Below are positions 5,204 through 63,823 of a stretch of DNA of 64,000 bases, one piece after another; the first letter of the stretch is position 1, and every line of letters starts with the position of its first letter. Location: the NCBI GenBank assembly GCA_903892305.1, contig CAITHQ010000066.1, positions 688 to 64,687 of the forward strand, given 5' to 3'. The notes beneath the pieces were generated by a model that did no database searches, was not told the DNA's origin, and saw only the letters and a list, made by a program, of their open reading frames with translations. A program made the translations under genes and the position numbers. The stretch is from an uncultured Alphaproteobacteria bacterium. Its GTDB lineage: Bacteria > Pseudomonadota > Alphaproteobacteria > Caulobacterales > Caulobacteraceae.

Positions 5204-7258
5204 TTAGCCGCGAGCCTGATGGGCCCAGGCTTGGTCGACGCGCTCAGCCCCTGGTGCCCATTTCATCATTACGGTGATGAGGTCGCGGGGACTGATCGGC
5301 TTGAGGATCAAGTCATCAAACCCATCATTTAAGTCGCCGTCGGCAAGGTCGGCGTCCGCGCTGAAGGCCAGGATCGGAATGTTCAGGTTTGGCCCAGCCA
5401 GTGACTTGAGCCTGACCAGGGTTTCAGGGCCGCTCAGGCCGGGCATGCGAATATCAAGAAGGATAACATCGAAGGGGGCGGTCTTCGCCTCAACGAGTGC
5501 AGCGTGGCCGCTTTCAACATCTGTTACCACGACGCCTAACGGTTCCAAAACCGCCCGGGCGAGGTCTCGATTGGCTCTGTTGTCATCGACGATCAGCAAT
5601 CTCAGGCCTTCAATACCACCCTGCGCCGGGCCCTCGGCGACCGGTTCAGCTTCCTTGGATGGCATAGCCTGGACGGTGACGTGAAAGGCTGATCCCACCC
5701 CCAAAGCGCTGCTCACCCCGATCGTGCCGCCCATGCCTTCGGCCAGACCCTTGCAGATGGCCAGGCCAAGGCCAGTGCCCCCGTGCCTGCGTGTGGAAGA
5801 TCCATCAACCTGACTGAACCGTTTGAAAAGTTGGGCCCGCTGACCTTCATCCATTCCAATGCCTGTATCGGCGACCTCGACACGGATCTGGTTTAGGGGG
5901 CGCAGATAGGCGAGGCGGACGGTGACCGATCCAACGTCGGTAAACTTGACAGCATTGCCAATCAAGTTGAGCAAGATCTGCCTCAAGCGGTCAGGGTCGA
6001 CCATGACGTGGGACGGGACAGGGCCATCGACTTCGAAACCCAAGGTCACACCCTTGGTCTTGGATTCGGGAATGAACATGGCCAGGCTGTCTTCCACCAG
6101 CGGGCTTAAAGCCACTGATCTGGAACGGAATTCCACCTGCGCGGCCTCTAACTTCGAGAAGTCTAGAATATCATTGACGATGGCCAGCAGGGCCCGACTT
6201 CCAGAGGTAATCCTGTCCAGGTGTTGCCGCGCCGTCGCATTCAGATCCTGCCGCTCCACCAACAGCCCCGCAAAGCCCAGGATCGCCGTCAGAGGGGTAC
6301 GTATCTCATGACTCATATTGGCCAGAAAGGCGGACTTGACGGCAGAGGCGGCCTCGGCCTCCTCGCGCGCAGTGGCCAACTCGGCCTCCATAGCCTTGCG
6401 CTCGGTCACATCGCGGGCGACGTCCTGAAATTCAATCAGCTCTCGTGTCTCTGAATCGAAGACGGCGCGCGGCCGGGTCTCCAACCACACGATGGACCCA
6501 TCCTTATGCAGGGCGCGATATTCACATCGGAACGGCGGAGCGTTGGGGCCAGCCGCAGCGTGATCACGGAAAGCCCTAACAACCCTGCGAATATCGCCTG
6601 GGTGCATGTAGGCGATGGCCGGACGCCCAATCAGCTCTTCCGGGTCATAGCCCAATAGGGTCGTGACAGATGGGGATAGAAAACTGAAATGAGTATTGGG
6701 GGCATAACACGCGATTATGTCGTTGGCGTTTTCCGCCATCAGCCGAAATCGAGACTCGCTTTGGGCCAAGCGCGCTTCGGTGGCACGGCGCGCACTGATA
6801 TCTCGGAGGCTGTCTTGAAAACCAATGAGCTTGCCGGTTTCAGGATCATAGATAGCCTGAAGTCCGCCTTCCACCCAAAGGCTGATACCGTCTTTACGCA
6901 CCACCCTGAACTCGACGCGCAGCGGCGCTGTTTGCCGATAAGTGGCAAAGTGGTCTCCGATGGCCTTATTGAGTTCAGCTCGATCTTCGGGATGAACGAA
7001 GTTGGGCTTTTGGCCAACCAGATCGGCTGGCTGGTATCCAAGGACATCCCGGCAAGAGGGAGACACATAGGTCAAAATGCCCTCGGGATTACTGCAACAG
7101 ACCATGTCCAACAAATGGTCCACCATAAGCCGAAAGCGACCCTGCCCCCTCTCCGTGGAGGCCGAGGGCTGGTCCGATCCCATCTGTTCGTGGTGACCGG
7201 AAGACATAGACGTCTGGAGATCGTCGTTACAACGCATGGTAACAGGTTTAGCCGCCAT
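5204..7258 (-). CDS. hybrid sensor histidine kinase/response regulator with PAS domains
   Basis: Two PAS-like segments. H-box SHEIRTPL. N/G boxes NLIGNAVKFT, DTGIGM, GGTGLGLAI. C-terminal receiver LLIVDDN ... DVILLDIRMPG. Confidence 0.9.
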   Translation of the reverse strand: MAAKPVTMRCNDDLQTSMSSGHHEQMGSDQPSASTERGQGRFRLMVDHLLDMVCCSNPEGILTYVSPSCRDVLGYQPADLVGQKPNFVHPEDRAELNKAIGDHFATYRQTAPLRVEFRVVRKDGISLWVEGGLQAIYDPETGKLIGFQDSLRDISARRATEARLAQSESRFRLMAENANDIIACYAPNTHFSFLSPSVTTLLGYDPEELIGRPAIAYMHPGDIRRVVRAFRDHAAAGPNAPPFRCEYRALHKDGSIVWLETRPRAVFDSETRELIEFQDVARDVTERKAMEAELATAREEAEAASAVKSAFLANMSHEIRTPLTAILGFAGLLVERQDLNATARQHLDRITSGSRALLAIVNDILDFSKLEAAQVEFRSRSVALSPLVEDSLAMFIPESKTKGVTLGFEVDGPVPSHVMVDPDRLRQILLNLIGNAVKFTDVGSVTVRLAYLRPLNQIRVEVADTGIGMDEGQRAQLFKRFSQVDGSSTRRHGGTGLGLAICKGLAEGMGGTIGVSSALGVGSAFHVTVQAMPSKEAEPVAEGPAQGGIEGLRLLIVDDNRANRDLARAVLEPLGVVVTDVESGHAALVEAKTAPFDVILLDIRMPGLSGPETLVRLKSLAGPNLNIPILAFSADADLADGDLNDGFDDLILKPISPRDLITVMMKWAPGAERVDQAWAHQARG

Positions 7259-7300
7259 GGCCTAAACAGGGATTAACTCGACCACGTCATTCGATAAAAT

Positions 7301-7681
7301 TTATACGGGTGAACCCTGGGTGAGTCGACGTTCGGTTGAGACCACCAACTCAGTCCAAATGGCAGCCTCTAGCTCTGGATCACGAGCTTCAGCTGCAATG
7401 TGGCAGTCAATCAAATTGGCTCTCAGCCGCGCATTCTCTGCCGTCAAAGCGGAAATCCGAAAGTCCGACTCATCTCCCTCTAAATGAAGCAATTTACGGA
7501 GAGCACGATTTTCGATGACCAGTTGATGGGCGGCATCGTCCCAGGTCCGGCTTGCCATGGCTAGGAGGGCTGCCGTCAATCCGAGCGCCCCTGCCCGGTC
7601 GGCGGGAGGTATATCAGGGGCTGCATTGCGGGCCACAAGGCCAGACAGTTCCAACAGCACATCGGAAACATTCGGTTTCAT
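7301..7681 (-). CDS. hypothetical protein (126 aa), last gene of the P450 operon
   Basis: Start moved to ATG at 7681, which overlaps the upstream stop as ATGA. Helical, no recognised motif. Confidence 0.6.
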   Translation of the reverse strand: MKPNVSDVLLELSGLVARNAAPDIPPADRAGALGLTAALLAMASRTWDDAAHQLVIENRALRKLLHLEGDESDFRISALTAENARLRANLIDCHIAAEARDPELEAAIWTELVVSTERRLTQGSPV

Positions 7682-8706
7682 AGGCGACCCATAACCTTCA
7701 GCACCGCCCTGTCTTGGGCATTCTGCAGGGCCCAGGGTGGATAAACCATGATGGGTTCGCGATTGCCGCCATCGATCCAAGCCTTGGCCGAAGACACCCA
7801 AATCGCCTGGCCCTTCACGCAATTAAACAGGGTCCACCAATGAAGTGCGCCAGGGTCCGCCTTGAGGCCGCTGGATCTTTCCCAAACAGATACCGCAAGC
7901 GCATTGGAAACCAATCCGCCAGCCAGGTTCCGCCCAAAGGACCAGACGGGGTTCAAACTCCAGCCAAGGTCCTCCAGGGGATCGCCAAGGTGGGCCATTT
8001 CCCAATCGAGGACCCCGTGAATATTCCCTGCAGTATCGAAGAGAAAATTCCCGGTGCGATAATCCCCATGCACAAGGGCAATGGTCTTCGGCGGAGGCGG
8101 TGGATTGGCGCGCAGCCATCTAATGGCGGCGCGAATGATCGGTAGGGGCTCTGTCTGGTCATCATCGAGCACCTGCTCCCAATAGCCAAGTTCTCGCGAC
8201 CAGCAGTCGCCGGGGGCAACATTGGGCATCACTGAGGTCAAGCCCAGCGCGACGGGGTCTGCCTTAGCGATTTCACCCAGGATGGTCCATTTGCGCTCAG
8301 CGAGTTTTCCGTGGGACGGCAGATAGGGGTCGGTCCACAGCAGGGCAGGCGCGGCCTGGAAACCTTCGATCTCAGCGGCAATGAAGAAGGGATAATCGAG
8401 GGGCGCGCTGGACTCCTCCAGCCACAGCATTTCTGGCACCGGCACAGTTGAGCCGTAAAACGCACGATAGGCCTCAAATTCAATCCGACGCTCAGTATCG
8501 ATCAGACTGGCCGGCGGATCGCGGCGCAGGATGAGGGCGCGAGACTTGGATGCCCCGTGCTCGAGCCAGGACAGCCGAAACCGATAGGTCTCCCGCGACG
8601 CGCCACCAGAGATTCTGCTGAGACGATCGACCACAATGTCGGAAGCCTCCGGCATCTGTGTTGCAACATAGTCGGCGATCCGAGCCTCCAGGCTCATCTG
8701 GCTCAA
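7678..8706 (-). CDS. phosphotransferase-fold protein (APH/choline kinase family)
   Basis: Kinase catalytic loop HGDYRTGNFLF and metal-binding DWEMAHLGDP. The ORF-track start is TTG at 8706, overlapping the P450 stop. An alternative ATG at 8697 lies 5 nt after that stop. Confidence 0.85.
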   Translation of the reverse strand: MSQMSLEARIADYVATQMPEASDIVVDRLSRISGGASRETYRFRLSWLEHGASKSRALILRRDPPASLIDTERRIEFEAYRAFYGSTVPVPEMLWLEESSAPLDYPFFIAAEIEGFQAAPALLWTDPYLPSHGKLAERKWTILGEIAKADPVALGLTSVMPNVAPGDCWSRELGYWEQVLDDDQTEPLPIIRAAIRWLRANPPPPPKTIALVHGDYRTGNFLFDTAGNIHGVLDWEMAHLGDPLEDLGWSLNPVWSFGRNLAGGLVSNALAVSVWERSSGLKADPGALHWWTLFNCVKGQAIWVSSAKAWIDGGNREPIMVYPPWALQNAQDRAVLKVMGRL

Positions 8707-9983
8707 TCCATTTCAAAGCGTATGGGAACCGACTTTGGCCCATTCACGAAGACGCTCTGGCTCCAGACCGCCGGCCCATCGAGTTCCACCGATTTCAAGC
8801 GGGGCAACATTTCTTCCCAGAGAATGCGCATTTCCATCTTGGCCAGGTGCTGGCCCAGGCACAGATGGGCACCATAGCCAAAGGACAGCTGCTTGTTTGG
8901 CGCGCGATCCACCATGAAGTCATTGGGTCGGTCAAACACCGCTTCATCGCGGTTGCCAGAGGCATAGCAAAGCATGATCCAGTCATCCTTGCGCAGTTGA
9001 CGCCCGCCAAACTCCACATCCTCTGCGGCCGAGCGCATGAAGGTCTTGACGGGAGTCGTCCAGCGAATGGATTCCTCAACAAGGCTCGGGATCAGATCGG
9101 GATTGGCCTTGACCTTGGCCAACTGATCAGGCCGCTCTGCCAGGCCCCATAGGGCACCGGCTGTAGAGGACGAGGTCGTGTCGTGCCCGGCGGTGGCGAC
9201 GATGATGTAATACCCTAAGGCCTCGAATTCCGAGATGGGATTGCCGTCAATCTTGGCATTGGCAATGACGCTGGCGAGGTCGTCCCGTGGCTGAGCCCTG
9301 CGGCTGGCAGACAGGGCCGTGAAGTAGTTGAAAAAGTCAGTGATGACGCTGAGATCGAAAGTCTGCTCACCCTTTTCGTCGACTTGCGGTTTGCGGCCCA
9401 GCTCAGGATCAGACGCCCCGAATAGCTCTTGGGTCAGCATCAGCATGCGCGGCTCGTCCTCTTCGGGCACGCCCATAATTTCCATCACGACATGCAACGG
9501 ATAGTGCAGGGCGACCTCCTTGACGAAGTCGCACTTGCCGCCGGTTGCGGCCATCCGGTCAACAGAGGCTCGGGCGATCTTGCGAATACGATCTTCGTGG
9601 CTGCGCAGGTTCTGGGGCATGAACCAGGCCTGGGTCAGGGCGCGATATTTCGGATGATCTGGGGCATCCATCTGGACCAGGGTGCGCAGCAGGTGCGGGC
9701 TACCGCCCATGCGCTCGCGCACCCGCTCATCCACGGCCTTACTGACCATTGTCGTCGAGCGCGCGCCGCTCAGGAACAGGGAATTCTGCCGGCTGATTTC
9801 CAGAATATCGGCGTGCTTGGTGGCCACCCAGAAGGGATCGACTCCCTCGATCTCCGCCCGGCCAAAGGGATTATTGGCGCGCAGCCACGCATAGGTGTCG
9901 TAGATCCGACCGTCGGCATAGGCCAAGGCTTCAACCAGGGTATTAGCCTTGTCTTGAGGAATATTGATGTCGGCTGTGGTCAT
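8703..9983 (-). CDS. cytochrome P450
   Basis: I-helix AGHDTTSS, ExxR motif EESIRW, heme-thiolate loop FGYGAHLCLGQHLA. Confidence 0.95.
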   Translation of the reverse strand: MTTADINIPQDKANTLVEALAYADGRIYDTYAWLRANNPFGRAEIEGVDPFWVATKHADILEISRQNSLFLSGARSTTMVSKAVDERVRERMGGSPHLLRTLVQMDAPDHPKYRALTQAWFMPQNLRSHEDRIRKIARASVDRMAATGGKCDFVKEVALHYPLHVVMEIMGVPEEDEPRMLMLTQELFGASDPELGRKPQVDEKGEQTFDLSVITDFFNYFTALSASRRAQPRDDLASVIANAKIDGNPISEFEALGYYIIVATAGHDTTSSSTAGALWGLAERPDQLAKVKANPDLIPSLVEESIRWTTPVKTFMRSAAEDVEFGGRQLRKDDWIMLCYASGNRDEAVFDRPNDFMVDRAPNKQLSFGYGAHLCLGQHLAKMEMRILWEEMLPRLKSVELDGPAVWSQSVFVNGPKSVPIRFEMD

Positions 9984-10169
9984 GATGCATCGCCGTTCCG
10001 GACCTTGCTAGCAGCGCGCGCGATTCGCGCAGCGCGGTGACCCTTGGTCATCGAAATTCGGCTTCTCCCTTCCGTTGTTATCTGCGTTCACTTAGTGATT
10101 AAGTCTGACATCAGCGCAACGAGACTGACAAGGGACGATCCGAAGATCGCCCACTCCGGAGGACCGCCC

Positions 10170-11252
10170 ATGCTCACCAAGGCCGATGACTTTCCGATTC
10201 ACCAGACCCCAGAGCCCATCGCTTATTCGGGGACCGACAGGAATTTCTACGATCGCTATTTTTTCAATGGCTACCAGCCAGACGGAACCGAATTTTTCGC
10301 CATCGCCTTTGGCGTCTACCCCCACCTAAATGTCGCCGACGCCCACTTCTCCGTCATCCGCAATGGGGTGGAGCACTGCCTCCACGCCTCACGCCTCTTG
10401 AACATGGAACGGATGGATCTTGAGGTCGGGCCGATCTCTATTTCGGTCCTGGAGCCTCTGCAAAAGCTCAAGGTGACAGTAGCTCTAAGCGAGGGGATTG
10501 CTGCGGAGCTGATCTTTGAGGGCCGCACCTTCCCAATCGAAGAGCCGCGGTTCATGCGCCGCATCGGGCCTCGGGCCTTTATGGACTATACCCGTCTCAC
10601 CCAGAACGTCCGGATCACCGGCTGGATTGAAGTTGATGGCGTACGGAAAACCCTCGACGCCGGCACCGTCGGTACCCGGGATCGGTCCTGGGGCGTCCGT
10701 CCCGTAGGTAATCCAGACTCTCAGCCAACCGTGCCCGAACAGGTGGGTGGCTTTTTCTGGCAGTGGACTCCCTTGAATTTCGCCGACAAGTCCGTCTTTT
10801 TCCATGTGAATGCCGATCCGGACGGCGTGCCTTGGAACACCCGAGCGGTCATCCTGAAAGACGGCGCAGGACCCAACGAGGGGCACCACACAGACACAGC
10901 CACCATCGAAGATGTCACCATGATCCCAGGTACCCGGCATGCCCAGGGCGGGACCCTGGTCGTACCCCTGAAGCAGGGCTCAGCGAAGGTGAAGTTCGAA
11001 CCCTTCCTTACCTTCCTGATGCGGGGCATTGGCTATGGCCATCCCAACTGGCGCCATGGGGCCTATAAGGGGGTTCTGGTGGTAGAGCGCGAGGACATTG
11101 ATCTGGCCAAGGTCAACATGGCCAGCCCGGAAAACTGGCACATTCAAGCCCTGTCCCGGGTGACCCTAAGCCTACCGGGCGAAGCCTCAGACGTGGGCAT
11201 GGGCGTCTTCGAGCAATTGATCGCAGGACCCTATCGACCTTACGGTCTCTAA
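10170..11252 (+). CDS. conserved hypothetical protein, divergent from the P450 operon
   Basis: Start moved to ATG at 10170 (GGAGGA at 10158-10163). No signal peptide. Predominantly beta-like sequence; the RDRSWG segment is the only motif-like feature I see. Confidence 0.7.
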   Translation: MLTKADDFPIHQTPEPIAYSGTDRNFYDRYFFNGYQPDGTEFFAIAFGVYPHLNVADAHFSVIRNGVEHCLHASRLLNMERMDLEVGPISISVLEPLQKLKVTVALSEGIAAELIFEGRTFPIEEPRFMRRIGPRAFMDYTRLTQNVRITGWIEVDGVRKTLDAGTVGTRDRSWGVRPVGNPDSQPTVPEQVGGFFWQWTPLNFADKSVFFHVNADPDGVPWNTRAVILKDGAGPNEGHHTDTATIEDVTMIPGTRHAQGGTLVVPLKQGSAKVKFEPFLTFLMRGIGYGHPNWRHGAYKGVLVVEREDIDLAKVNMASPENWHIQALSRVTLSLPGEASDVGMGVFEQLIAGPYRPYGL

Positions 11253-57400: not shown

Positions 57401-58090
57401 TTGACGTCCCTGACCCTATTGGGCGGTCTCATCCTCGGACTTGTGAGCTCTTTGCATTGCGTCGTCATGTGCGGCGGGGTGGGCGGTGCCCTGTCCATAT
57501 CCCTGGGACGCACCGGCGCCCTCTCTGATCGCGCACGCGCCTTGGCCATGGCCCAGATCGGAAAGCTGGTCGCCTATGTGACGGCTGGCGCTTTGGTCGG
57601 GGGCCTCGGGTCGACCCTTTATGGACTGTTTGATCAGCACGCCGCCTATGCGGTCCTGCAAAGGTTTGGTGCTCTGGTTTTGATATGGACCGCTATCTCC
57701 TTGACCGGCCTCCTACCCTCTCCGGCAATTCTTGGCCGAGCCTTCGCCCCGCTCAGCCGCTGGGCCTGGGCCGAACAGCGTCGCGGACAAGGTTGGGCGG
57801 CCCTGGTCGCCGGTTTGGTCTGGGGACTAATGCCCTGCGGCATGGTCTACGCCGCCTTGATGTACGCCATGTTGGCGGGAGACGCCCTGCGCGGTGCCCT
57901 TGTTATGCTGGGATTTGCCTTGGGAGTATCACCACTCCTGACTGCGTCGTCGCTCGGCGTGGCATGGCTTGGCAAGACTGACCGCCGCCCTGCTCTGCAA
58001 TGGGTGGCGGGGCTGGCCCTCATCGCGGTTTCGATCACAACCCTGGTCTGGCCCAATGTCGCGAGCACCCTTTGTCGCCCAAGCCTATAG
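57401..58090 (+). CDS. TauE/SafE- or DsbD_2-type membrane protein
   Basis: SSLHCVVMCGG motif in TM1 and a second MPCGMVY motif. About six TM helices. TTG start. Confidence 0.7.
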   Translation: MTSLTLLGGLILGLVSSLHCVVMCGGVGGALSISLGRTGALSDRARALAMAQIGKLVAYVTAGALVGGLGSTLYGLFDQHAAYAVLQRFGALVLIWTAISLTGLLPSPAILGRAFAPLSRWAWAEQRRGQGWAALVAGLVWGLMPCGMVYAALMYAMLAGDALRGALVMLGFALGVSPLLTASSLGVAWLGKTDRRPALQWVAGLALIAVSITTLVWPNVASTLCRPSL

Positions 58091-58171
58091 AAACCAATTC
58101 AGCCACAGGTGCTCAATGAATGGGAATTGCCGAGACTTTAGTTTTACGAGGAGCAAATTAAACCATCAGGA

Positions 58172-58249
58172 TTTAACCCTGTTTTCAGACCCTTGACGCA
58201 CATTGCACAAAACGGGTTTCGGCAGGAGCTTTCGCTGGACTTTAACCCT
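58172..58249 (+). promoter_or_regulatory. pair of direct repeats GGA(C)TTTAACCCT in the AT-rich leader of the paralog pair
   Basis: TTTAACCCT at 58172-58180 and 58241-58249, each preceded by GGA or GGAC, 69 bp apart. A TTGACG hexamer lies at 58193-58198 between them. Confidence 0.35.
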
Positions 58250-58344
58250 TAGATATCCCACCACCCCTAATTGTGTGGCCAACTTGTCAGGTGCATCCTG
58301 CGACTCTTGGCCGAAGGCGAGAGATAGGAAAGAAATAGGTCCGT

Positions 58345-59457
58345 ATGGCCGCTAGCTCAGATCGTTCAATCCGAAATCTGGGAGCCTTACAGAAGACGGC
58401 GTCAACCAGCCGTGTCCTAAATCTTCTGGCCGTCGGGGCAGAGCATCGGTCCGATCCTGAATATCTCAGCCATTCCTTTTTCAAAAACTCGATTTTGAAC
58501 GAGTCCCTTATCCTCAAGCACCGTCTGCGTGCCGATGAGCGGTTCGTCTTCAATGATCAAAGGCATATTGCGACCAAGGTCATCATCCCCTTTGAGCGTA
58601 GTGACCTACGCATGGGTGGCCGATCCTTTTTCGTGGGACAGCGAGGCTGGACCAGCATGGTGCAGGAGCTGACGGCCGATGGCGATAAGATCGATCGAGA
58701 TGTAGCGGTCCTTGAAGCTCTGGATGAAATTCCATCCCTTGACCCATTCCTGCTTCGTGAACATTTGAGCCGCCGCGGGTTCCCTATTTCTGCACTCTAT
58801 TTCGCCATTTCTGATGCAGACATGGAGCGCATGCAGGCTTTTGTCGGCGGGCAAATCTGCGAATTGATCGATATGGCCTTTCCGAAAGGCTCACATACCG
58901 GCTCTGAAAGAATGGCCACAGTGCTCTTATCCAACAAGATCGACGAGCGCCTAGAACCGCTTCGATTGGTTATGCGTCTGGACGCAGACACTTACCGGGA
59001 GGGCATCTTCTGCTGGAAGGGCTTCCTTTATTACAAGTGGGCCCTAGCCGATATGGCTCCCAAATTGGCCGTTGTACTTAAGGAACTACCCATGCTTCGC
59101 CCGGCTGGACACCGGGACAGGGAACTCTTGGTCTATATTGAGCAGGCGCGTGGTCGCCTGATGAAGGCCATTATGCAAAGACGTAAAGAGGTCACGGATG
59201 CCCTTACGGTCTATGACGACGCCTACCGGGATTTGACCAAGAACGGCAAGCCCATGGCCTTTCGTGACTTCCTGCTAAAGGCACCGACCATGTTCATGGT
59301 CCTTGGCGAGCGCATCGGCTCCATTTCGCATATTTCGAGCTTTTGGCGGTATCGATTTAAGGATCACCGCGATCTTGCGGCCCCGATCGAGGAAATCGTC
59401 GATATTCTATCGGACTTTGAATCCAACCTCGCCAGCTTCGAAAATTTCGCGGCCTAG
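58345..59457 (+). CDS. hypothetical protein, paralog 1 of a tandem pair (370 aa), no recognisable domain
   Basis: Long ORF with an ATG start. Coding status is supported by gap-free end-to-end similarity to the next ORF. No signal peptide, TM helix or catalytic motif recognised. A/T-richer codon use than the neighbours. Confidence 0.8.
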   Translation: MAASSDRSIRNLGALQKTASTSRVLNLLAVGAEHRSDPEYLSHSFFKNSILNESLILKHRLRADERFVFNDQRHIATKVIIPFERSDLRMGGRSFFVGQRGWTSMVQELTADGDKIDRDVAVLEALDEIPSLDPFLLREHLSRRGFPISALYFAISDADMERMQAFVGGQICELIDMAFPKGSHTGSERMATVLLSNKIDERLEPLRLVMRLDADTYREGIFCWKGFLYYKWALADMAPKLAVVLKELPMLRPAGHRDRELLVYIEQARGRLMKAIMQRRKEVTDALTVYDDAYRDLTKNGKPMAFRDFLLKAPTMFMVLGERIGSISHISSFWRYRFKDHRDLAAPIEEIVDILSDFESNLASFENFAA

Positions 59458-59493
59458 GCCATTATTCTGAAATTAACGGCAAGGACCCAAAGT

Positions 59494-59517
59494 ATTGCGG
59501 TGGTCACATACCGCAAT
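59494..59517 (+). other. perfect 8-bp inverted repeat between the two paralogs
   Basis: ATTGCGGT (59494-59501), 8-nt loop, ACCGCAAT (59510-59517). No U-tract follows, so it is not a canonical terminator. Confidence 0.45.
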
Positions 59518-59533
59518 GAGGCTTTGAGGATTA

Positions 59534-60652
59534 GTGAGCGTGCTAGGTGGAAATACCGATGGATCGGTCCGCAAACTAGACGAGCTTGAAAAAACAGCGT
59601 CAACGAGCCGCGTCCTGAACCTGCTGGCGATTGCGCGGGAGCACAAGCACGAGGCGGACTACCTGGCGCATCCGTTTTTCCGGAACCAGGTGTTGAATGA
59701 GGCCATTATCCTGAAACACAGGATCCGGCCGGACGAGCGGTTCGTGTTCGACTCGCCCAAGAATATCGGCACCAAAGTGATTATCCCTTTTGAGCGCTCT
59801 GATCTGGAGATTGGGGGGCGCTCGTTCTTTGTCGGACAAAGGGGTTGGACCGATCTGGTCCAGGAGCTGGCAGGCAGCGACCAGAAAATTCAGCACGATC
59901 TCACCGTCCTTCTTGCGCTGGATGAATTGCCGTCCTTGGACCCCTTCTTGCTGCGCGAGCATCTGAGCCGCCGCCAGTTTCACGTCTCAAACCTCTATTT
60001 CTCGATTTCCAGCGCAGACCTGGATCGCATGCAGACCTACGTGGCGTCCAAGATCATGCGCATTATCGAGATGGCGTTTCCCAATGGCGCAGACACGGGG
60101 ACAGTCAAACTCGCCTCATTACTCCTGATGTCACAGCTTGATGACCGCCTGGAACCCCTGCGCCTTGTGCTTCGCCTTGAGGAAGACGCTTATCTAGAGG
60201 GCATGTTTAGCTGGAAGGGCTTCCTCTATTATCAATGGGCGCTTGCAGACATCGACCCCCGACTGGCATCCATGCTGAAAGACCTGCCAAACCTACAAGC
60301 TTCTGGCCGCCAAGATGTCTCAAGAGCCCAATACATCCGGGAGGCAAAAATCCGGATTACACAAGGCGTTCGGGCGCGCAGGCACGAGGTTGCCCAGATT
60401 CTAGAGAGTTACCTTTCGGCCTATCGGGACCTGACCCAAAACGACAGGCCCATGTCCTTTCGCGACTTCATCTTGCAGGCACCCGCCAAGTTCATGGTCC
60501 TGGGGGATAAGATGGGGGCGATCTCCCACTTGGCGAGCTTCTGGAAATACCGCTTCGCGGGCACCAATGAACTGATCGCACCCATGGATGAGGTGCTCGC
60601 AATCCTGGAAGATTTCCAGAGCGCCTTAGGGTCACCGTCCTATGACCACTAA
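59534..60652 (+). CDS. hypothetical protein, paralog 2 of a tandem pair (372 aa), no recognisable domain
   Basis: Collinear with paralog 1. The ORF-track start is GTG at 59534. GTG at 59540 has better spacing to GAGGA (59526-59530). Confidence 0.8.
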   Translation: MSVLGGNTDGSVRKLDELEKTASTSRVLNLLAIAREHKHEADYLAHPFFRNQVLNEAIILKHRIRPDERFVFDSPKNIGTKVIIPFERSDLEIGGRSFFVGQRGWTDLVQELAGSDQKIQHDLTVLLALDELPSLDPFLLREHLSRRQFHVSNLYFSISSADLDRMQTYVASKIMRIIEMAFPNGADTGTVKLASLLLMSQLDDRLEPLRLVLRLEEDAYLEGMFSWKGFLYYQWALADIDPRLASMLKDLPNLQASGRQDVSRAQYIREAKIRITQGVRARRHEVAQILESYLSAYRDLTQNDRPMSFRDFILQAPAKFMVLGDKMGAISHLASFWKYRFAGTNELIAPMDEVLAILEDFQSALGSPSYDH

Positions 60653-60665
60653 TGGCGATCATTGA

Positions 60666-62822
60666 TTATGGCGCGATCAGGGTTCCCGTCAGCAGGACAG
60701 AGCCAGAAAGAGACATCTGTTGGGCGTTAGGCCCTAAGGTGACCTCCATCGGGCTTGGGTCAATCCGCCAACCCGGGACACCAACATCATAGGTCGCAAG
60801 CAGCCTTGGATCTGCGGTCACGGTCACTTGACGGCTTTCCCCGGCCTTTAGGCTGACCCTTGCCCACCCGATCAATCGAGACCCGCCCGCCACCCGGGCA
60901 TAGACCTGGGCCGTTTCAACGCCCTGTCGTGCACCTGTGTTGGTCACTTCGAATTTGGCAGTGATTGTTTCACCGCCTGTCAGGGTCAGGGCGCTATAGG
61001 CGAAATCCGTATAGGAAAGCCCAAAGCCGAAGGGAAACAAAGGCTTGGAACCCTGCCGATCATGCCATCTATACCCGATATCAGCGCCTTCTGGGTGGTC
61101 GACGGAAAAGCGACCCTTGTGTTGCTGCACATCCGGCCGGGTGGTGGGCAGGGTTTGACCCTCAATCGGCGGTCCGAAAATCAGCCCGGGAATTTCCGGC
61201 CTTACGAGGTCCTCGACGCTGCACGGAAAGCTGATGGGTAAGCGTCCCGACGGGTTTACCTCACCAAACAGGACCCGAGAAATCGCCTCACCGCCGCGGG
61301 TTCCAGAATACCAAGCCTGAAGAACGCCAGCGACCTGATCAAGCCAAGGCATAACCACCGGTGTTCCAGTCTCCAGCACCACAATGGTCTTGGTGTTCAC
61401 GCTCGCGATGCTAGCGATCAGTGCGTCCTGATCGTCAGGCAGGTTTAGGCTGGGGAGGTCTTCGGCTTCGGTCGCCCACTGGGTTGCAAAGACAATGGCA
61501 AGGTCGCAATTTCGCGCCAGATCCGCTGCGGCGGCCGGGTCAGATCCATCATTGAACATAAACTGGGTCTGCGGTGCCTCGGCTTCCATGGCGCGCAAGG
61601 GTGAAGACGGGTGGTATGTCACTTTGACAAAGGCTCCAGCGACGCCACCGACCTCCAGTTCAAGGCCGGGTACCCCCACGGGAATGACCTGTGACGACCC
61701 GCCGCCAGAGAGGACGCCCTGATCCGCATGCCCGCCAATGACGGCAATCCGGCGGACCTTGCGCGATAGGGGCAGGACGCTGTTCTGGTTCTTAAGCAGG
61801 ACAATACCGTGCTCAGCCGCCTTGAGCGCGACCTCGCCATTAGCGGCATAGTCTGTCTCTCGGCGCTCCGTCGGCGCGTCGAAGACCCCATGGTGAAACA
61901 GGCTGCGTAGAATGCGCTGGACCATGTCCGACAGGCGCTCAAATGGTACTTCGCCATCTTCGATGGCCACCTTCAAGGACGCTCCGAAATAGACCTGCTT
62001 GTCCAGCTGTTCGCCGCTCTCTTGATCCAGACCGGCCATGACGGCTTTGGCGGTCGAATGCACTGCGCCCCAGTCGCTCATCACCCAGCCGCGATACCCC
62101 CAGTCCTTCTTCAGGACCTGGGTCAGCAAGAACTCGTTCTCCCCGGCCCATTCGCCATTGACCTTGTTATAGGCGCACATGATCGAGCCGGGGTCGCCGT
62201 CTTCGATGGCGATCTGAAAAGCCAGCAGGTCGCTCTCGCGCAGGGCTGCCTCATCAATCCGTGCATCGACCACATGGCGGCAGGTCTCCTGGTCATTGAG
62301 CGCAAAGTGTTTGAGGGTGCAGACAATCTGGTTGGACTGCGCGCCCTTGATCCCTGCGCCCGCCAATTTCCCTGCGAGCAAGGGGTCTTCGCCCAGATAT
62401 TCGAAATTGCGACCGCAGCGTGGCTCGCGGGTCAGGTTGGCACCGCCGCCCAGCAGAACATTGAACCCCTTGTCTCGGGCTTCGGATCCCACCATGGCAC
62501 CGGCTTCATAGGCTAGGTCAATGTCCCAGCTGGAGGCCAGGGCGAGTCCTGAGGGAAGCCCTGTGGCGCCGTCGCCCGCGCGCACCCGGCGTGGATTGGC
62601 GATTCCCAGGCTGGCGTCAGTCTCATTCAGGGGCGGAATACCAAGCCTCGGGACACCTGGAATATAGCCCGCGCCCATGGCCGCATCCTCTGGCGGTGGA
62701 TTGCAGAGGGCCGGCATGGGGCCGTGGACAAGGCTGATCATTTCATCAAGGGTCAGCTGGGCGACCAATAGATCTGCGCGTTCGTCAGCCGATAGCGCCG
62801 TATTCATCCACGGTTGGGTCAT
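60666..62822 (-). CDS. glycoside hydrolase family 3 (beta-glucosidase-like)
   Basis: GH3 motifs KHFALNDQE and nucleophile region VMSDWGA. C-terminal beta-sandwich domains. Start moved to ATG at 62822 (MTQPWMNTALSADERA), 10 nt after the upstream stop. No signal peptide seen. Confidence 0.9.
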   Translation of the reverse strand: MTQPWMNTALSADERADLLVAQLTLDEMISLVHGPMPALCNPPPEDAAMGAGYIPGVPRLGIPPLNETDASLGIANPRRVRAGDGATGLPSGLALASSWDIDLAYEAGAMVGSEARDKGFNVLLGGGANLTREPRCGRNFEYLGEDPLLAGKLAGAGIKGAQSNQIVCTLKHFALNDQETCRHVVDARIDEAALRESDLLAFQIAIEDGDPGSIMCAYNKVNGEWAGENEFLLTQVLKKDWGYRGWVMSDWGAVHSTAKAVMAGLDQESGEQLDKQVYFGASLKVAIEDGEVPFERLSDMVQRILRSLFHHGVFDAPTERRETDYAANGEVALKAAEHGIVLLKNQNSVLPLSRKVRRIAVIGGHADQGVLSGGGSSQVIPVGVPGLELEVGGVAGAFVKVTYHPSSPLRAMEAEAPQTQFMFNDGSDPAAAADLARNCDLAIVFATQWATEAEDLPSLNLPDDQDALIASIASVNTKTIVVLETGTPVVMPWLDQVAGVLQAWYSGTRGGEAISRVLFGEVNPSGRLPISFPCSVEDLVRPEIPGLIFGPPIEGQTLPTTRPDVQQHKGRFSVDHPEGADIGYRWHDRQGSKPLFPFGFGLSYTDFAYSALTLTGGETITAKFEVTNTGARQGVETAQVYARVAGGSRLIGWARVSLKAGESRQVTVTADPRLLATYDVGVPGWRIDPSPMEVTLGPNAQQMSLSGSVLLTGTLIAP

Positions 62823-62832
62823 GATCTTCCAC

Positions 62833-63642
62833 CTAGTTGTAGGGCGAGGCCTTGGCCGTTTCAGCTTCGAGGGCGCAGGCGGCGGGGTCTGGCACCGGGC
62901 CCGCAAGGCGGGCCTTGGCGACCTCAGCCCGAGCGACGTCCAGATCCTTACGGAAAACCTCTGACCCGTGCAGGCCCGCCACCAGGATCGAGGCGTTGGT
63001 TCGACCCGACTCAACGGCGCTCATGGTGTGGACGCCGCAGACGAGGCGACTTTCGCCAAAGGCCCGGGCGCGGGCCAGAATTTCGGTGGCGCGATCAGGT
63101 GCCAGCTCAGCCAGGATCAGGCCAATCGTCCAGCCAAAGGTGACGTGTCCCGACGGGTAGTCCGAGCTGGCAGAAAGGGCGGCTGACTGCTCGACGCAGG
63201 TCGGGCCGGGATCGGTCAAATAGGGGCGCGGGCGCTTATAATTGTCTTTGGGGTTGTTGGTCGCCCAGGCGACGTCAGGGCCCAACTTGGCAATCATGGC
63301 GCTAAAACGAGGGGCGTTTTGCGGCGTGAGTTCGACGCCCACGGCGCAGCTCATATCCTTCACCGCCCCGCCAAGATTGACGTCATTGATCGCCATGGCC
63401 CAGCGGGGCGAGTCTTTCAGGCGACGGGTGGCCAGGAAGGTGGCCCGGTCAGACTCCCACCGAATGGTGCCAGGCGTCGGCGCAGGCGGTAGGATCTTGT
63501 AGGTGTCGGGTGCCGCCTTTCCGAGATAGCCGCTAGAGACGCCCAGGGTCATGGAGGCGGGCTTGGTCGCAACCTCCGCGAGGGCACCCCCCGCCAGAAC
63601 CGCCAGCACACCGACGAAAATTCCTGCTCTTGCCCTGGTCAT
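62833..63642 (-). CDS. class A (PAP2) acid phosphatase, secreted
   Basis: Signal peptide. PAP2 motifs KDNYKRPRP, YPSGH and SRLVCGVHTMSA. Start moved to ATG at 63642 (AGGGAGG RBS). Confidence 0.85.
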   Translation of the reverse strand: MTRARAGIFVGVLAVLAGGALAEVATKPASMTLGVSSGYLGKAAPDTYKILPPAPTPGTIRWESDRATFLATRRLKDSPRWAMAINDVNLGGAVKDMSCAVGVELTPQNAPRFSAMIAKLGPDVAWATNNPKDNYKRPRPYLTDPGPTCVEQSAALSASSDYPSGHVTFGWTIGLILAELAPDRATEILARARAFGESRLVCGVHTMSAVESGRTNASILVAGLHGSEVFRKDLDVARAEVAKARLAGPVPDPAACALEAETAKASPYN

Positions 63643-63823
63643 ATCATAGCCTCCCTTGATTGGGCCCATCATGCCCAGTGGCGAAGGCCTTGGGAACCGG
63701 TCTGATTGGTTTTCGCGCTTGGTCGGCCTGAAACGAGTTAAAGGAGACCTTGGAATTGATGCATTCAAGGTGCCAGTCTGGTGGGATATCTGTAATGTTG
63801 CAGAGCTGAACGTGGAACCGCGA

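Follow-up and report, generated by a model that had tools for sequence, protein, structure and literature searches.

A tandem pair of paralogous genes from a large Caulobacterales protein family without a Pfam model

Two genes lie in tandem on the forward strand of the 64,000-nucleotide stretch of DNA that we analysed, hereafter called the window. Gene A (58345–59457, + strand) starts with ATG and, as judged from the ORF list, its homologues, the AF2 model and dN/dS ratios, encodes a soluble protein of 370 aa, the slowly evolving copy. Gene B, its faster-evolving paralogue, was mechanically called as an ORF from 59534 to 60652 (+ strand) with a GTG start and 372 aa; the coordinates and lengths given for both ORFs by an earlier, sequence-only reading of this DNA were correct. 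A second GTG, at 59540, is invariant in L001 and L003, the two related loci that carry B, as is the ribosome-binding core AGG that precedes it, and the upstream GTG at 59534 reads GTA in L001. Orthologues within the B clade are 370 aa long. These features suggest that B most likely starts at 59540 (59540–60652), which would also give 370 aa.

BLASTP aligned A and B with 210 of 364 residues identical (58%), 78% positives and no gaps (E = 7e-166), residue 1 of A pairing with residue 4 of B when B is counted from 59534. The end-to-end alignment without gaps that had been read by eye was thus reproduced; the constant offset of three residues read along with it does not hold if B starts at 59540, since the offset is then one residue. 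Identity by ungapped column fell from 62% (columns 1–130) to 59% (131–260) and 49% (261–367), roughly as estimated before (two-thirds over the first ~130 columns, then fewer). No transmembrane segment was present, the highest Kyte-Doolittle mean over 19 residues being 1.08, in line with what had been claimed. The upstream neighbour of the pair is a DsbD_2 membrane protein according to Pfam. Downstream, a convergent GH3 gene lies 13 bp from the end of B; both this gap and the GH3 identity, which Pfam confirms, had been reported correctly.

The spacer upstream of A (58091..58344) measured 254 bp with a GC content of 0.476, matching the AT-rich intergenic region described ahead of the pair, and presumably contains the promoter and leader. 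No sigma-70-type promoter was matched on its + strand, and no Rfam family was found in it or across 57.9–60.8 kb. The spacer has diverged from those of L002 and L003 except for one block of 20 bp, TTAACCCTGTTTTCAGACCC (TTAACnnTGTTTTCAGAnCC), at 58173..58192 on the + strand, which we regard as a candidate regulator-binding site. This block is invariant in the window, L001, L002 and L003, and lies 165–184 bp before the start of A in the four syntenic loci. The window has a single copy of it, against a chance expectation of 0.06 matches. It holds TTAA-N7-TTCA, which we read as a CtrA-box-like element with one mismatch, the CtrA consensus being TTAA-N7-TTAA. The block was absent upstream of all of the ~80 other family genes examined. 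Because it is confined to the four syntenic A-type loci, the idea of a CtrA box as a family-wide feature was dropped.

The spacer between the genes (59458..59539, + strand) carries the conserved ribosome-binding core before B, and is 76 bp long when B is counted from 59534. A search for intrinsic terminators found no terminator-like site in it, which makes co-transcription of A and B plausible. A hairpin in the same spacer was discarded as a functional element, as it lacks conservation and has a z-score of no more than −1.8.

We searched the two proteins and their homologues against libraries of known domains. None of A, B and 118 further Caulobacterales members reached the gathering cut-off of any Pfam-A model (24,736 models). 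Ten members from Azospirillum and Nisaea gave only isolated matches far under the cut-off, and ten long members, searched for domain fusions, gave none above it. No family among the sub-threshold Pfam matches was common to more than two members; those of two Azospirillum-branch proteins to Plasmodium Wx5/PRESAN (18–20 bits against cut-offs of 24–25) were treated as compositional. With A and B as queries, zero NCBIfam families and no defence model of PADLOC-DB 2.0 matched at E ≤ 1. Sequence and profile searches of the PDB returned nothing better than E = 0.28.

The AF2 model of A reached a pLDDT of 92.9 and a pTM of 0.90, and the N-domain predicted separately a pLDDT of 87.5. In the model, an alpha/beta N-domain of ~95 residues (about residues 20–112) is followed by an all-helical domain of ~250 residues centred on a helical hairpin of ~40 residues (214–250 / 259–298). 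To count as a fold match, a Foldseek hit of a high-confidence query model needed E ≤ 1e-3 or a TM-score of more than about 0.5. By this measure the full model had no match in the PDB or BFVD, the weak top hits being helical bundles with E ≥ 0.35 and TM ≤ 0.22, and the best hit of the separately predicted N-domain in the PDB had E = 2 (TM ≤ 0.30). The fold of the family is confidently predicted and matches no solved structure. The earlier remark that the pair has no recognisable domain is borne out by the Pfam scan of 120 diverse members, by the profile searches of PDB sequences and by Foldseek against the PDB and BFVD.

Conserved polar residues are sparse across the superfamily. Three of them (T77, D119 and D133) never vary and three more (N26, N52 and K58) hardly do, and all six are located in the N-domain strands and the first helices past the N-domain. 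R23, H59, R62, E65 and K78 are also conserved within Caulobacterales, but the Azospirillum/Nisaea branch lacks R23, H59 and R62. The remaining conserved positions are mostly aromatic, Pro or Gly.

Several known motifs and folds were considered and set aside. For HEPN (Rx4-6H), A has R322-x5-H328, with K in B, and neither residue falls in a column conserved at ≥90%. For PilZ, the second Arg of R62-x3-R66 in A varies across the family (consensus KHRLRxxE) and DxSxxG is missing; in addition, the N-domain is mixed alpha/beta without a barrel, and no PilZ Pfam model matched. The C-terminal two-thirds of the family, all-helical with a long antiparallel hairpin, resembles Hpt, CheA-P1 and chemoreceptor-type bundles, as do the helical bundles among the weak Foldseek hits. 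However, none of the 120 family members matches the Hpt Pfam model and no HxxKG-type histidine is conserved, and the Hpt motif was ruled out by residue conservation. A strand at 92–96 (RSFFV), the following GQRGW and a helix at 102–110 give a superficial likeness to ParB/Srx-like and DUF262-type N-domains. In those domains a strand-GxxR-helix motif binds phosphate, whereas the Arg is not conserved in the family (consensus FVGQxxx). There was no ParBc or DUF262 match, and a ParB/Srx-like N-domain was rejected because Foldseek found nothing in the PDB for the N-domain model.

The family occurs across the whole of Caulobacterales, and a distant branch of it is present in Azospirillaceae and Nisaea. 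At 90% identity it comprises over 3,269 clusters, each 'hypothetical' or unnamed and without precomputed Pfam assignments, and at 50% identity 798 representatives (E ≤ 1e-3); the RefSeq records of homologues carry the name 'hypothetical protein'. Nearly all of the 69 genome loci collected are labelled Caulobacterales, the few others being unclassified or probably mislabelled MAGs. The branch in Azospirillum and Nisaea shows 20–25% identity, and A is 16–23% identical to its members. Genomes carry several paralogues of the family. About 60 of the 69 loci hold a single copy, in varied contexts with mostly housekeeping neighbours. Tandem copies were confined to L001, L003 and L034; L007 has a divergent pair and L072 a fragment, and the A–B type of tandem pair is limited to a narrow Phenylobacterium-like clade. 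Adjacent pairs, which most homologues should form if pairing were obligate, thus occur in 4 of 69 loci, tandem and divergent ones together, and one member of the A clade that shares 77% identity with A stands alone at another locus. The pair had been put forward as a two-gene module; the ~60 single-copy loci in unrelated contexts and the unpaired close relative of A contradict this. Homologues that are mostly singletons in unrelated contexts are also the outcome that the sequence-only reading had named in advance as contrary to its proposal.

Neighbour clustering over the 69 loci revealed no conserved operon partner, only genus-level synteny with housekeeping-looking genes. In Brevundimonas the synteny around the family gene is genus-wide, and from their sequences we take the neighbours to be etfAB, cob(I)alamin adenosyltransferase, ahcY and bioB. 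Further neighbours of family members are purA, rpoH, der, ftsH and aroC. No defence-island context was seen, the neighbours being housekeeping or metabolic. Neighbours without Pfam matches in Nisaea, L079 and L080 were rejected as partners, being neither paralogues nor recurrent elsewhere.

We then compared the pair with its closest relatives. The flanks are 83–89% identical in nucleotides across L001, L002 and L003. L001 and L003 carry the A–B pair at the corresponding syntenic position, and L002 has a copy of A there, after which the contig ends. Between the window and L003, nucleotide identity is 70.5% in the pair versus 83% in the flanks. Both genes are under purifying selection, with dN/dS of 0.04–0.06 for A and 0.14–0.17 for B. 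B evolves about three times faster than A, and its dN to L001 is 0.117 versus 0.018 for A. The two proteins retain every family-invariant residue but two, and their clades are adjacent in the tree among several paralogue clades. The common site in L001 and L003, the selection on both copies and the retained residues bear out the suggestion that the duplication is old and that both copies have been retained together.

Signalling genes adjoin the family gene in some lineages. In the Caulobacter clade the gene order is purA, a hybrid kinase in some cases, the family gene and a response regulator, and rpoH follows either directly or a few genes on. C. henricii, C. ginsengisoli and a related metagenomic contig have the family gene flanked by purA, in some cases together with the hybrid kinase, on one side and by a CleD-type regulator on the other; the regulator of L070/L071 and L076 bears the arginine-rich motif YVGPDRRRF. 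L054 shows an unrelated arrangement, in which the family gene shares a strand with its neighbours, the genes of an Hpt protein and of a Cle-like regulator (YFGPCRRRR). Adjacency to Cle thus comprises two independent cases, with a rough post-hoc Poisson P of about 0.01. Counted up to two genes away from family members, two-component genes made up 6 of 176 neighbour clusters; in the background they made up 13 of 957 ORFs (odds ratio 2.6, Fisher P = 0.06), an enrichment that we treat as no more than a lead. The hybrid kinases adjoining family genes are not mutually orthologous and have the catalytic core alone in common. Most family contexts, this window included, have no signalling gene, and most members, this pair included, have no cle gene nearby. 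The likeness to Cle proteins is one of genomic adjacency only (cleD-type in the Caulobacter clade, Cle-like with Hpt in L054), but the family has neither a receiver domain nor the arginine-rich c-di-GMP motif.

In C. crescentus, purA is CCNA_03201, and the gene beside CC3101, CC3100, encodes CleD, a CheY-like protein that binds c-di-GMP (PMC5677366), so that CC3101 falls in the slot of the family gene. The C-terminal extensions of Cle proteins may recruit partner proteins (Nesper et al., 2017, PMC5677366). CC3101 is listed as 'hypothetical' among the signature proteins of Caulobacterales (Gupta & Mok, 2007, PMC2241609, Table 5). Its reported range of Caulobacter, Oceanicaulis and Maricaulis (PMC2241609) agrees with the loci of the family. 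By synteny, gene numbering and taxon range, CC_3101/CCNA_03199 is probably the C. crescentus counterpart, although it is a single gene at that site and not a tandem pair. The literature searched gave no functional data on CC3101/CCNA_03199, and a paper on HmrABCX proved unrelated.

Base composition bears on the origin of the pair. Computed GC was 0.51–0.56 over 58000–60750 versus 0.61–0.65 around it, and 0.532 in gene A, 0.559 in gene B and 0.614 in the remaining window. The low-GC pocket that had been claimed is therefore a real dip, the stretch of the pair lying 6–8 points under the window average. Over 67 family genes, total GC was on average 4.2 points under that of the flanks, and GC3 was not below flank GC3 (mean +0.9 points, 62 comparisons). 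The deficit of the pair within the window sits mainly at codon positions 2 and 1. GC3 of B is 0.697 against a window mean of 0.712; that of A, 0.615, is at the low end of 13 other window genes (0.613–0.785), yet within their range. Since family GC3 matches the flanks and the deficit is at GC2 and GC1, we conclude that the low GC of the pair is a family-wide effect of amino-acid composition. As had been stated, tRNA genes and flanking direct repeats are absent: a scan of 50–64 kb found no tRNA, and the repeat search found no flanking direct or inverted repeats, only the internal paralogous repeat and short matches of chance size. No relatives were detected by tblastn in 50,697 phage records or in IMG/VR, and PHROGs gave no family match (best E = 0.4). 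The pair shows none of the marks of a genomic island, namely deviant synonymous composition, a tRNA, integrase or repeats, and patchy presence in relatives.

These results weigh on the proposal that the pair is an old horizontally acquired or fast-evolving accessory module of two genes, for example for defence, whose products act as a hetero-oligomer. Such an import would fit the GC dip and the faster divergence of the pair than of its flanks between the window and L003. It would also fit the occurrence of some family members on Asticcacaulis and Azospirillum plasmids, one distant Azospirillum copy lying beside IS3 and toxin-antitoxin genes, and the strongly low GC3 of three Brevundimonas copies (L056, L061 and L062). 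However, family GC3 equals that of the flanks, the site and its neighbours are syntenic in relatives, and family members are mostly singletons in unrelated contexts. PADLOC, PHROGs, phage records and IMG/VR are without relatives; tRNA, integrase signature and flanking repeats are lacking; and the two genes, as paralogues that share their conserved residues, do not make up complementary halves of a system. GC3 parity, the lack of tRNA, repeats and phage relatives and the predominance of single-copy loci therefore do not support horizontal acquisition or an obligate module, and we consider such a module very improbable. Very probably the pair is neither a horizontally acquired island nor an obligate two-gene system. 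We hold with good confidence that the locus arose when a chromosomal gene of an undescribed alphaproteobacterial family, vertically inherited and as a rule stand-alone, underwent a lineage-specific duplication in tandem.

As to what the proteins do, we would guess, weakly and tentatively, at a stand-alone binding or adaptor protein in signal transduction. Each product would be soluble, cytoplasmic and two-domain, and the conserved residues might form one binding pocket on a rigid scaffold. The protein would then serve as a non-membrane binding or adaptor component in cytoplasmic signalling, in two-component, Hpt or CheY-like Cle circuits. A would retain the ancestral role, whereas B, though diverging, would still function and may use the helical domain to pair with A. 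Duplication together with such a role is the explanation that we somewhat favour as a whole. An equally good reading of the invariant Asp/Asp/Thr/Lys set is a catalytic centre, and an enzyme is possible, if on the doubtful side. Its active site would consist of T77, D119, D133 and K58, joined in Caulobacterales by R23, H59, R62, E65 and K78, and would lie where the N-domain meets the helical domain; it might serve phosphoryl or nucleotidyl chemistry, for instance, and A and B would be isozymes of diverged specificity. Strict retention of a few charged or polar residues despite 16–23% identity to the distant branch, strong purifying selection, stand-alone genes amid metabolic or housekeeping neighbours and several paralogues per genome, as in many enzyme families, are consistent with this. 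On the other hand, no catalytic family or fold was matched in Pfam, NCBIfam, the PDB or Foldseek, the basic residues R23, H59 and R62 are missing from the Azospirillum/Nisaea branch, the prevalence of aromatic, Pro and Gly among conserved positions is typical of a structural core, and there is no conserved metabolic operon. We judge it improbable that the pair is a cell-cycle or polarity factor of dimorphic Caulobacterales with a CtrA-dependent promoter at the conserved upstream block. The single mismatch of the block to the CtrA consensus, the centring of the family on Caulobacterales and the place of CC3101 among Caulobacterales-specific proteins (PMC2241609) point that way, but the box is missing upstream of the other family genes, the family also occurs in non-dimorphic Azospirillum and Nisaea, and the block could bind any regulator.

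Returning to the signalling adaptor, a bolder form of it is unlikely. The family would represent a new fold and a new cytoplasmic signalling class in Alphaproteobacteria, possibly the partner recruited by the C-terminal extensions of those Cle proteins, or by those Hpt relays, that tune the flagellar motor and surface attachment, and A and B would form a heteromer with split functions in the Phenylobacterium-like lineage. What is new here is a protein family and its predicted fold, unrelated to all families and folds compared; no new kind of biological system is shown. The tandem pair is an ordinary duplication, and its chief use is as a natural case of asymmetric paralogue divergence. The family as such spans several thousand sequences across Caulobacterales, the order of the cell-cycle model Caulobacter crescentus, without a Pfam or NCBIfam model. 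Its confidently predicted two-domain fold and strong purifying selection mark it as a well-defined part of the 'dark' proteome in a genetically tractable group, and one study of the inferred C. crescentus orthologue CC_3101, beside cleD, could assign a function family-wide.

The plus-strand genes A (58345-59457, 370 aa) and B (59534-60652 as called mechanically, 372 aa from a GTG start) were aligned by BLASTP at 58% identity and 78% positives with 0 gaps over 364 residues (E 7e-166), which bears out the ungapped paralogy noticed in the sequence-only reading. Identity also declines along the alignment, roughly as that reading had counted, being 62% over the first 130 columns and 49% over the last 107. 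Translation of B probably begins at the GTG at 59540, which would make B as long as A (370 aa): both this codon and the AGG preceding it are invariant in two related loci, L001 and L003, L001 has GTA in place of the GTG at 59534, and orthologs in the B clade have 370 aa. The spacer upstream of A (254 bp) and the gap between B and the convergent GH3 gene (13 bp) are as described earlier. No terminator-like site was found in the A-B spacer of 76-82 bp (76 bp to the mechanical B start), so co-transcription of the two genes is plausible. The same spacer holds a perfect 8-bp inverted repeat (ATTGCGGT...ACCGCAAT, 59494-59517) that is not followed by a T-run; L001 keeps only part of it and L003 lacks it. 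The folding z-score of the spacer is -1.8. A 20-bp block (TTAACnnTGTTTTCAGAnCC, 58173-58192), 165-184 bp upstream of the A-type gene, is invariant in the window and in the syntenic relatives L001, L002 and L003, among which the surrounding spacer has diverged. It occurs once in the window, is absent upstream of other family members, and resembles a CtrA box with one mismatch.

Neither A nor B contains a TM segment or matched any entry in Pfam-A, NCBIfam, PADLOC or PHROGs, in agreement with the earlier statement that no domain is recognisable. Pfam-A likewise matched no family for 118 further diverse members, 10 distant-branch members or 10 unusually long members, the last of which indicates that there are no domain fusions. 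Sequence and profile searches against all PDB chains gave a best E of 0.28. A very confident AlphaFold2 model from a 120-sequence alignment (mean pLDDT 92.9, pTM 0.90) comprises a small alpha/beta N-domain (strands 24-26, 55-60, 75-82 and 92-96) and an all-helical second domain with two helices of about 40 residues (214-250 and 259-298). Foldseek found no significant match for the full chain in PDB (best E 0.35, TM at most 0.22) or BFVD (best E 0.2), nor in PDB for the N-domain predicted on its own (pLDDT 87.5; best E 2). The protein family and its predicted fold are undescribed, and the novelty lies at the protein-family level; the tandem arrangement itself is ordinary.

The family is matched by more than 3,269 clusters at 90% identity, every one unnamed or 'hypothetical', and by 798 representatives at 50% identity at E<=1e-3 (253 at 1e-30). 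A search of one genome per species yielded 69 loci, nearly all labelled Caulobacterales (Phenylobacterium, Brevundimonas, Caulobacteraceae and one Maricaulaceae), with a few under unclassified or probably mislabelled MAG names. Asticcacaulis has copies on large plasmids, and a distant branch at 20-25% identity, mostly chromosomal, is found in Azospirillum and Nisaea. Only T77, D119 and D133 are invariant across the superfamily; N26, N52, K58, P82, G91, P130, F135, W224, G226, Y230, P303, L310 and G321 are nearly so, and R23, H59, R62, E65 and K78 are further conserved within Caulobacterales.

When A was compared by tblastn with all fetched loci, a single copy was found in about 60 of 69. Tandem copies are present in L001 and L003, close relatives of the window; L034 has a tandem pair made of two Brevundimonas paralog clades, L007 a divergent pair, and several MAGs carry 2-4 copies at separate loci. 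In L072 a paralog fragment adjoins a full copy: the 189-aa ORF at 6928-7497, directly upstream of the full-length gene, matches the family profile at E 1e-62 and is a truncated tandem paralog or pseudogene, showing that tandem duplication recurs in the family. A neighbour-joining tree placed A and B in two neighbouring clades amid several paralog clades of Phenylobacterium-like genomes, and one A-clade protein that shares 77% of its residues with A is encoded as a singleton in another context. Homologs are thus mostly singletons in unrelated contexts, the outcome that the sequence-only reading had named as refuting its two-gene module. That proposal of a module is not supported, and the pair is best read as a lineage-specific tandem duplication.

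That proposal had also made the pair horizontally acquired or fast-evolving. Its flanks are collinear in all three relatives, at 87-89% nucleotide identity in L001 and 83% in L003, both with the pair in place, and at 75-86% in L002, where the contig ends in the A gene. Between the window and L003, identity drops to 70.5% in the pair itself, which thus evolves faster than the genes around it. The low GC of the region (0.51-0.56 at 58.0-60.75 kb versus 0.61-0.65 nearby) is real, but the deficit lies chiefly at codon positions 2 and 1, and therefore reflects amino-acid composition: GC1, GC2 and GC3 are 0.588, 0.394 and 0.615 in A and 0.609, 0.373 and 0.697 in B, against means of 0.647, 0.482 and 0.712 in 13 other window genes. 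The GC3 of A is low, yet inside the window's range. Taken over the 67 family genes of the fetched loci, total GC averages 4.2 points below the flanks, whereas GC3 is no lower than in the ORFs alongside (mean +0.9 points). No tRNA or flanking repeats are present, as noted before, and no relatives were found among GenBank phages or in IMG/VR. On these grounds the pair does not appear to be an imported island, and import of a two-gene module is very improbable.

Some individual loci differ. Unlike the family rule, the copies at L056 3684-4784, L061 5744-6835 and L062 10001-11074 (Brevundimonas/Caulobacteraceae) have GC3 13-22 points below flanking ORFs, and so may have been acquired horizontally. 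A distant homolog on the conjugative plasmid p5 of Azospirillum argentinense (L075 7950-9104) adjoins an IS3 transposase and a closely packed series of toxin-antitoxin genes (VapC, MazF, HicAB, BrnT, Fic), in contrast to the housekeeping surroundings of chromosomal Azospirillum copies. The GH3 beta-glucosidase gene (window 60666-63014) is absent from L003 (12300-12369), where the gene directly after the pair is the homolog of the window's PAP2 phosphatase gene (62833-63768); the GH3 gene is thus an indel between close relatives.

Nei-Gojobori dN/dS was 0.04-0.06 for A orthologs and 0.14-0.17 for B orthologs. From dN between the window and L001 (0.018 for A, 0.117 for B), B evolves several-fold faster. 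All family-invariant residues are retained in both copies save K231Q and L310I in B, and both appear to be functional.

Neighbour genes differ between lineages. They are a DsbD_2 membrane protein upstream and GH3 downstream in the window, what we take to be etfAB, cob(I)alamin adenosyltransferase, ahcY and bioB in Brevundimonas, an SDR gene with aroC or ftsH in Azospirillum, and der, P450 and others elsewhere. In L078 (Nisaea acidiphila, 7001-10833) a distant member precedes two same-strand genes of 372 and 465 aa, which have no Pfam match, are not family paralogs and were seen in no other locus; this may be a lineage-specific three-gene cluster. In the Caulobacter clade the family gene sits between purA, in some cases followed by a hybrid kinase gene, and a response-regulator gene, and rpoH comes next downstream or a few genes further on. 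In the two Caulobacter genomes checked, this regulator has the arginine-rich motif YVGPDRRRF. In C. crescentus, where purA is CCNA_03201, CC3100 is CleD, a CheY-like motor regulator that binds c-di-GMP (PMC5677366), and CC3101 is listed as a hypothetical protein found only in Caulobacter, Oceanicaulis and Maricaulis (PMC2241609). From gene order, numbering and taxon range, we infer that CC_3101/CCNA_03199 is a candidate family ortholog. In a published table (PMC5172544), CCNA_03199 is listed with a hypomethylated GANTC site (NA1000 position 3359883) that lacks the MucR-target marks given to other sites there. Independently of the Caulobacter clade, L054 (8803-11107) carries on one strand a Cle-like CheY-type response regulator (motif YFGPCRRRR), an Hpt-domain gene that shares 4 bp with the regulator gene and, 140 bp further downstream, the family gene. 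A histidine kinase lies at most 2 genes from the family gene in a few other loci, and the adjacent kinases are not orthologous to one another. Two-component neighbours, the sole lead to a function, are weakly enriched (6/176 neighbour clusters versus 13/957 background ORFs, Fisher P = 0.06); for the two Cle adjacencies, P was estimated post hoc at ~0.01.

The observation of a paralogous pair is confirmed, and its earlier interpretation is partly supported. The family protein is soluble, two-domain and strongly constrained, and its gene usually stands alone. We infer that the N-domain and the first helices share one conserved polar site, set on a scaffold rich in aromatic residues. The site is compatible with a binding pocket or a catalytic site. 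Probability is spread over several readings, none well supported. The main rival, an enzyme of unknown activity, would use this site for catalysis and is rather doubtful. The reading adopted here, tentative and itself slightly less probable, is that the family protein binds or adapts other components of two-component/CheY-like (Cle, Hpt) signalling in the cytoplasm. A would then be the conservative copy and B the diverging one, which may form a heteromer with A.
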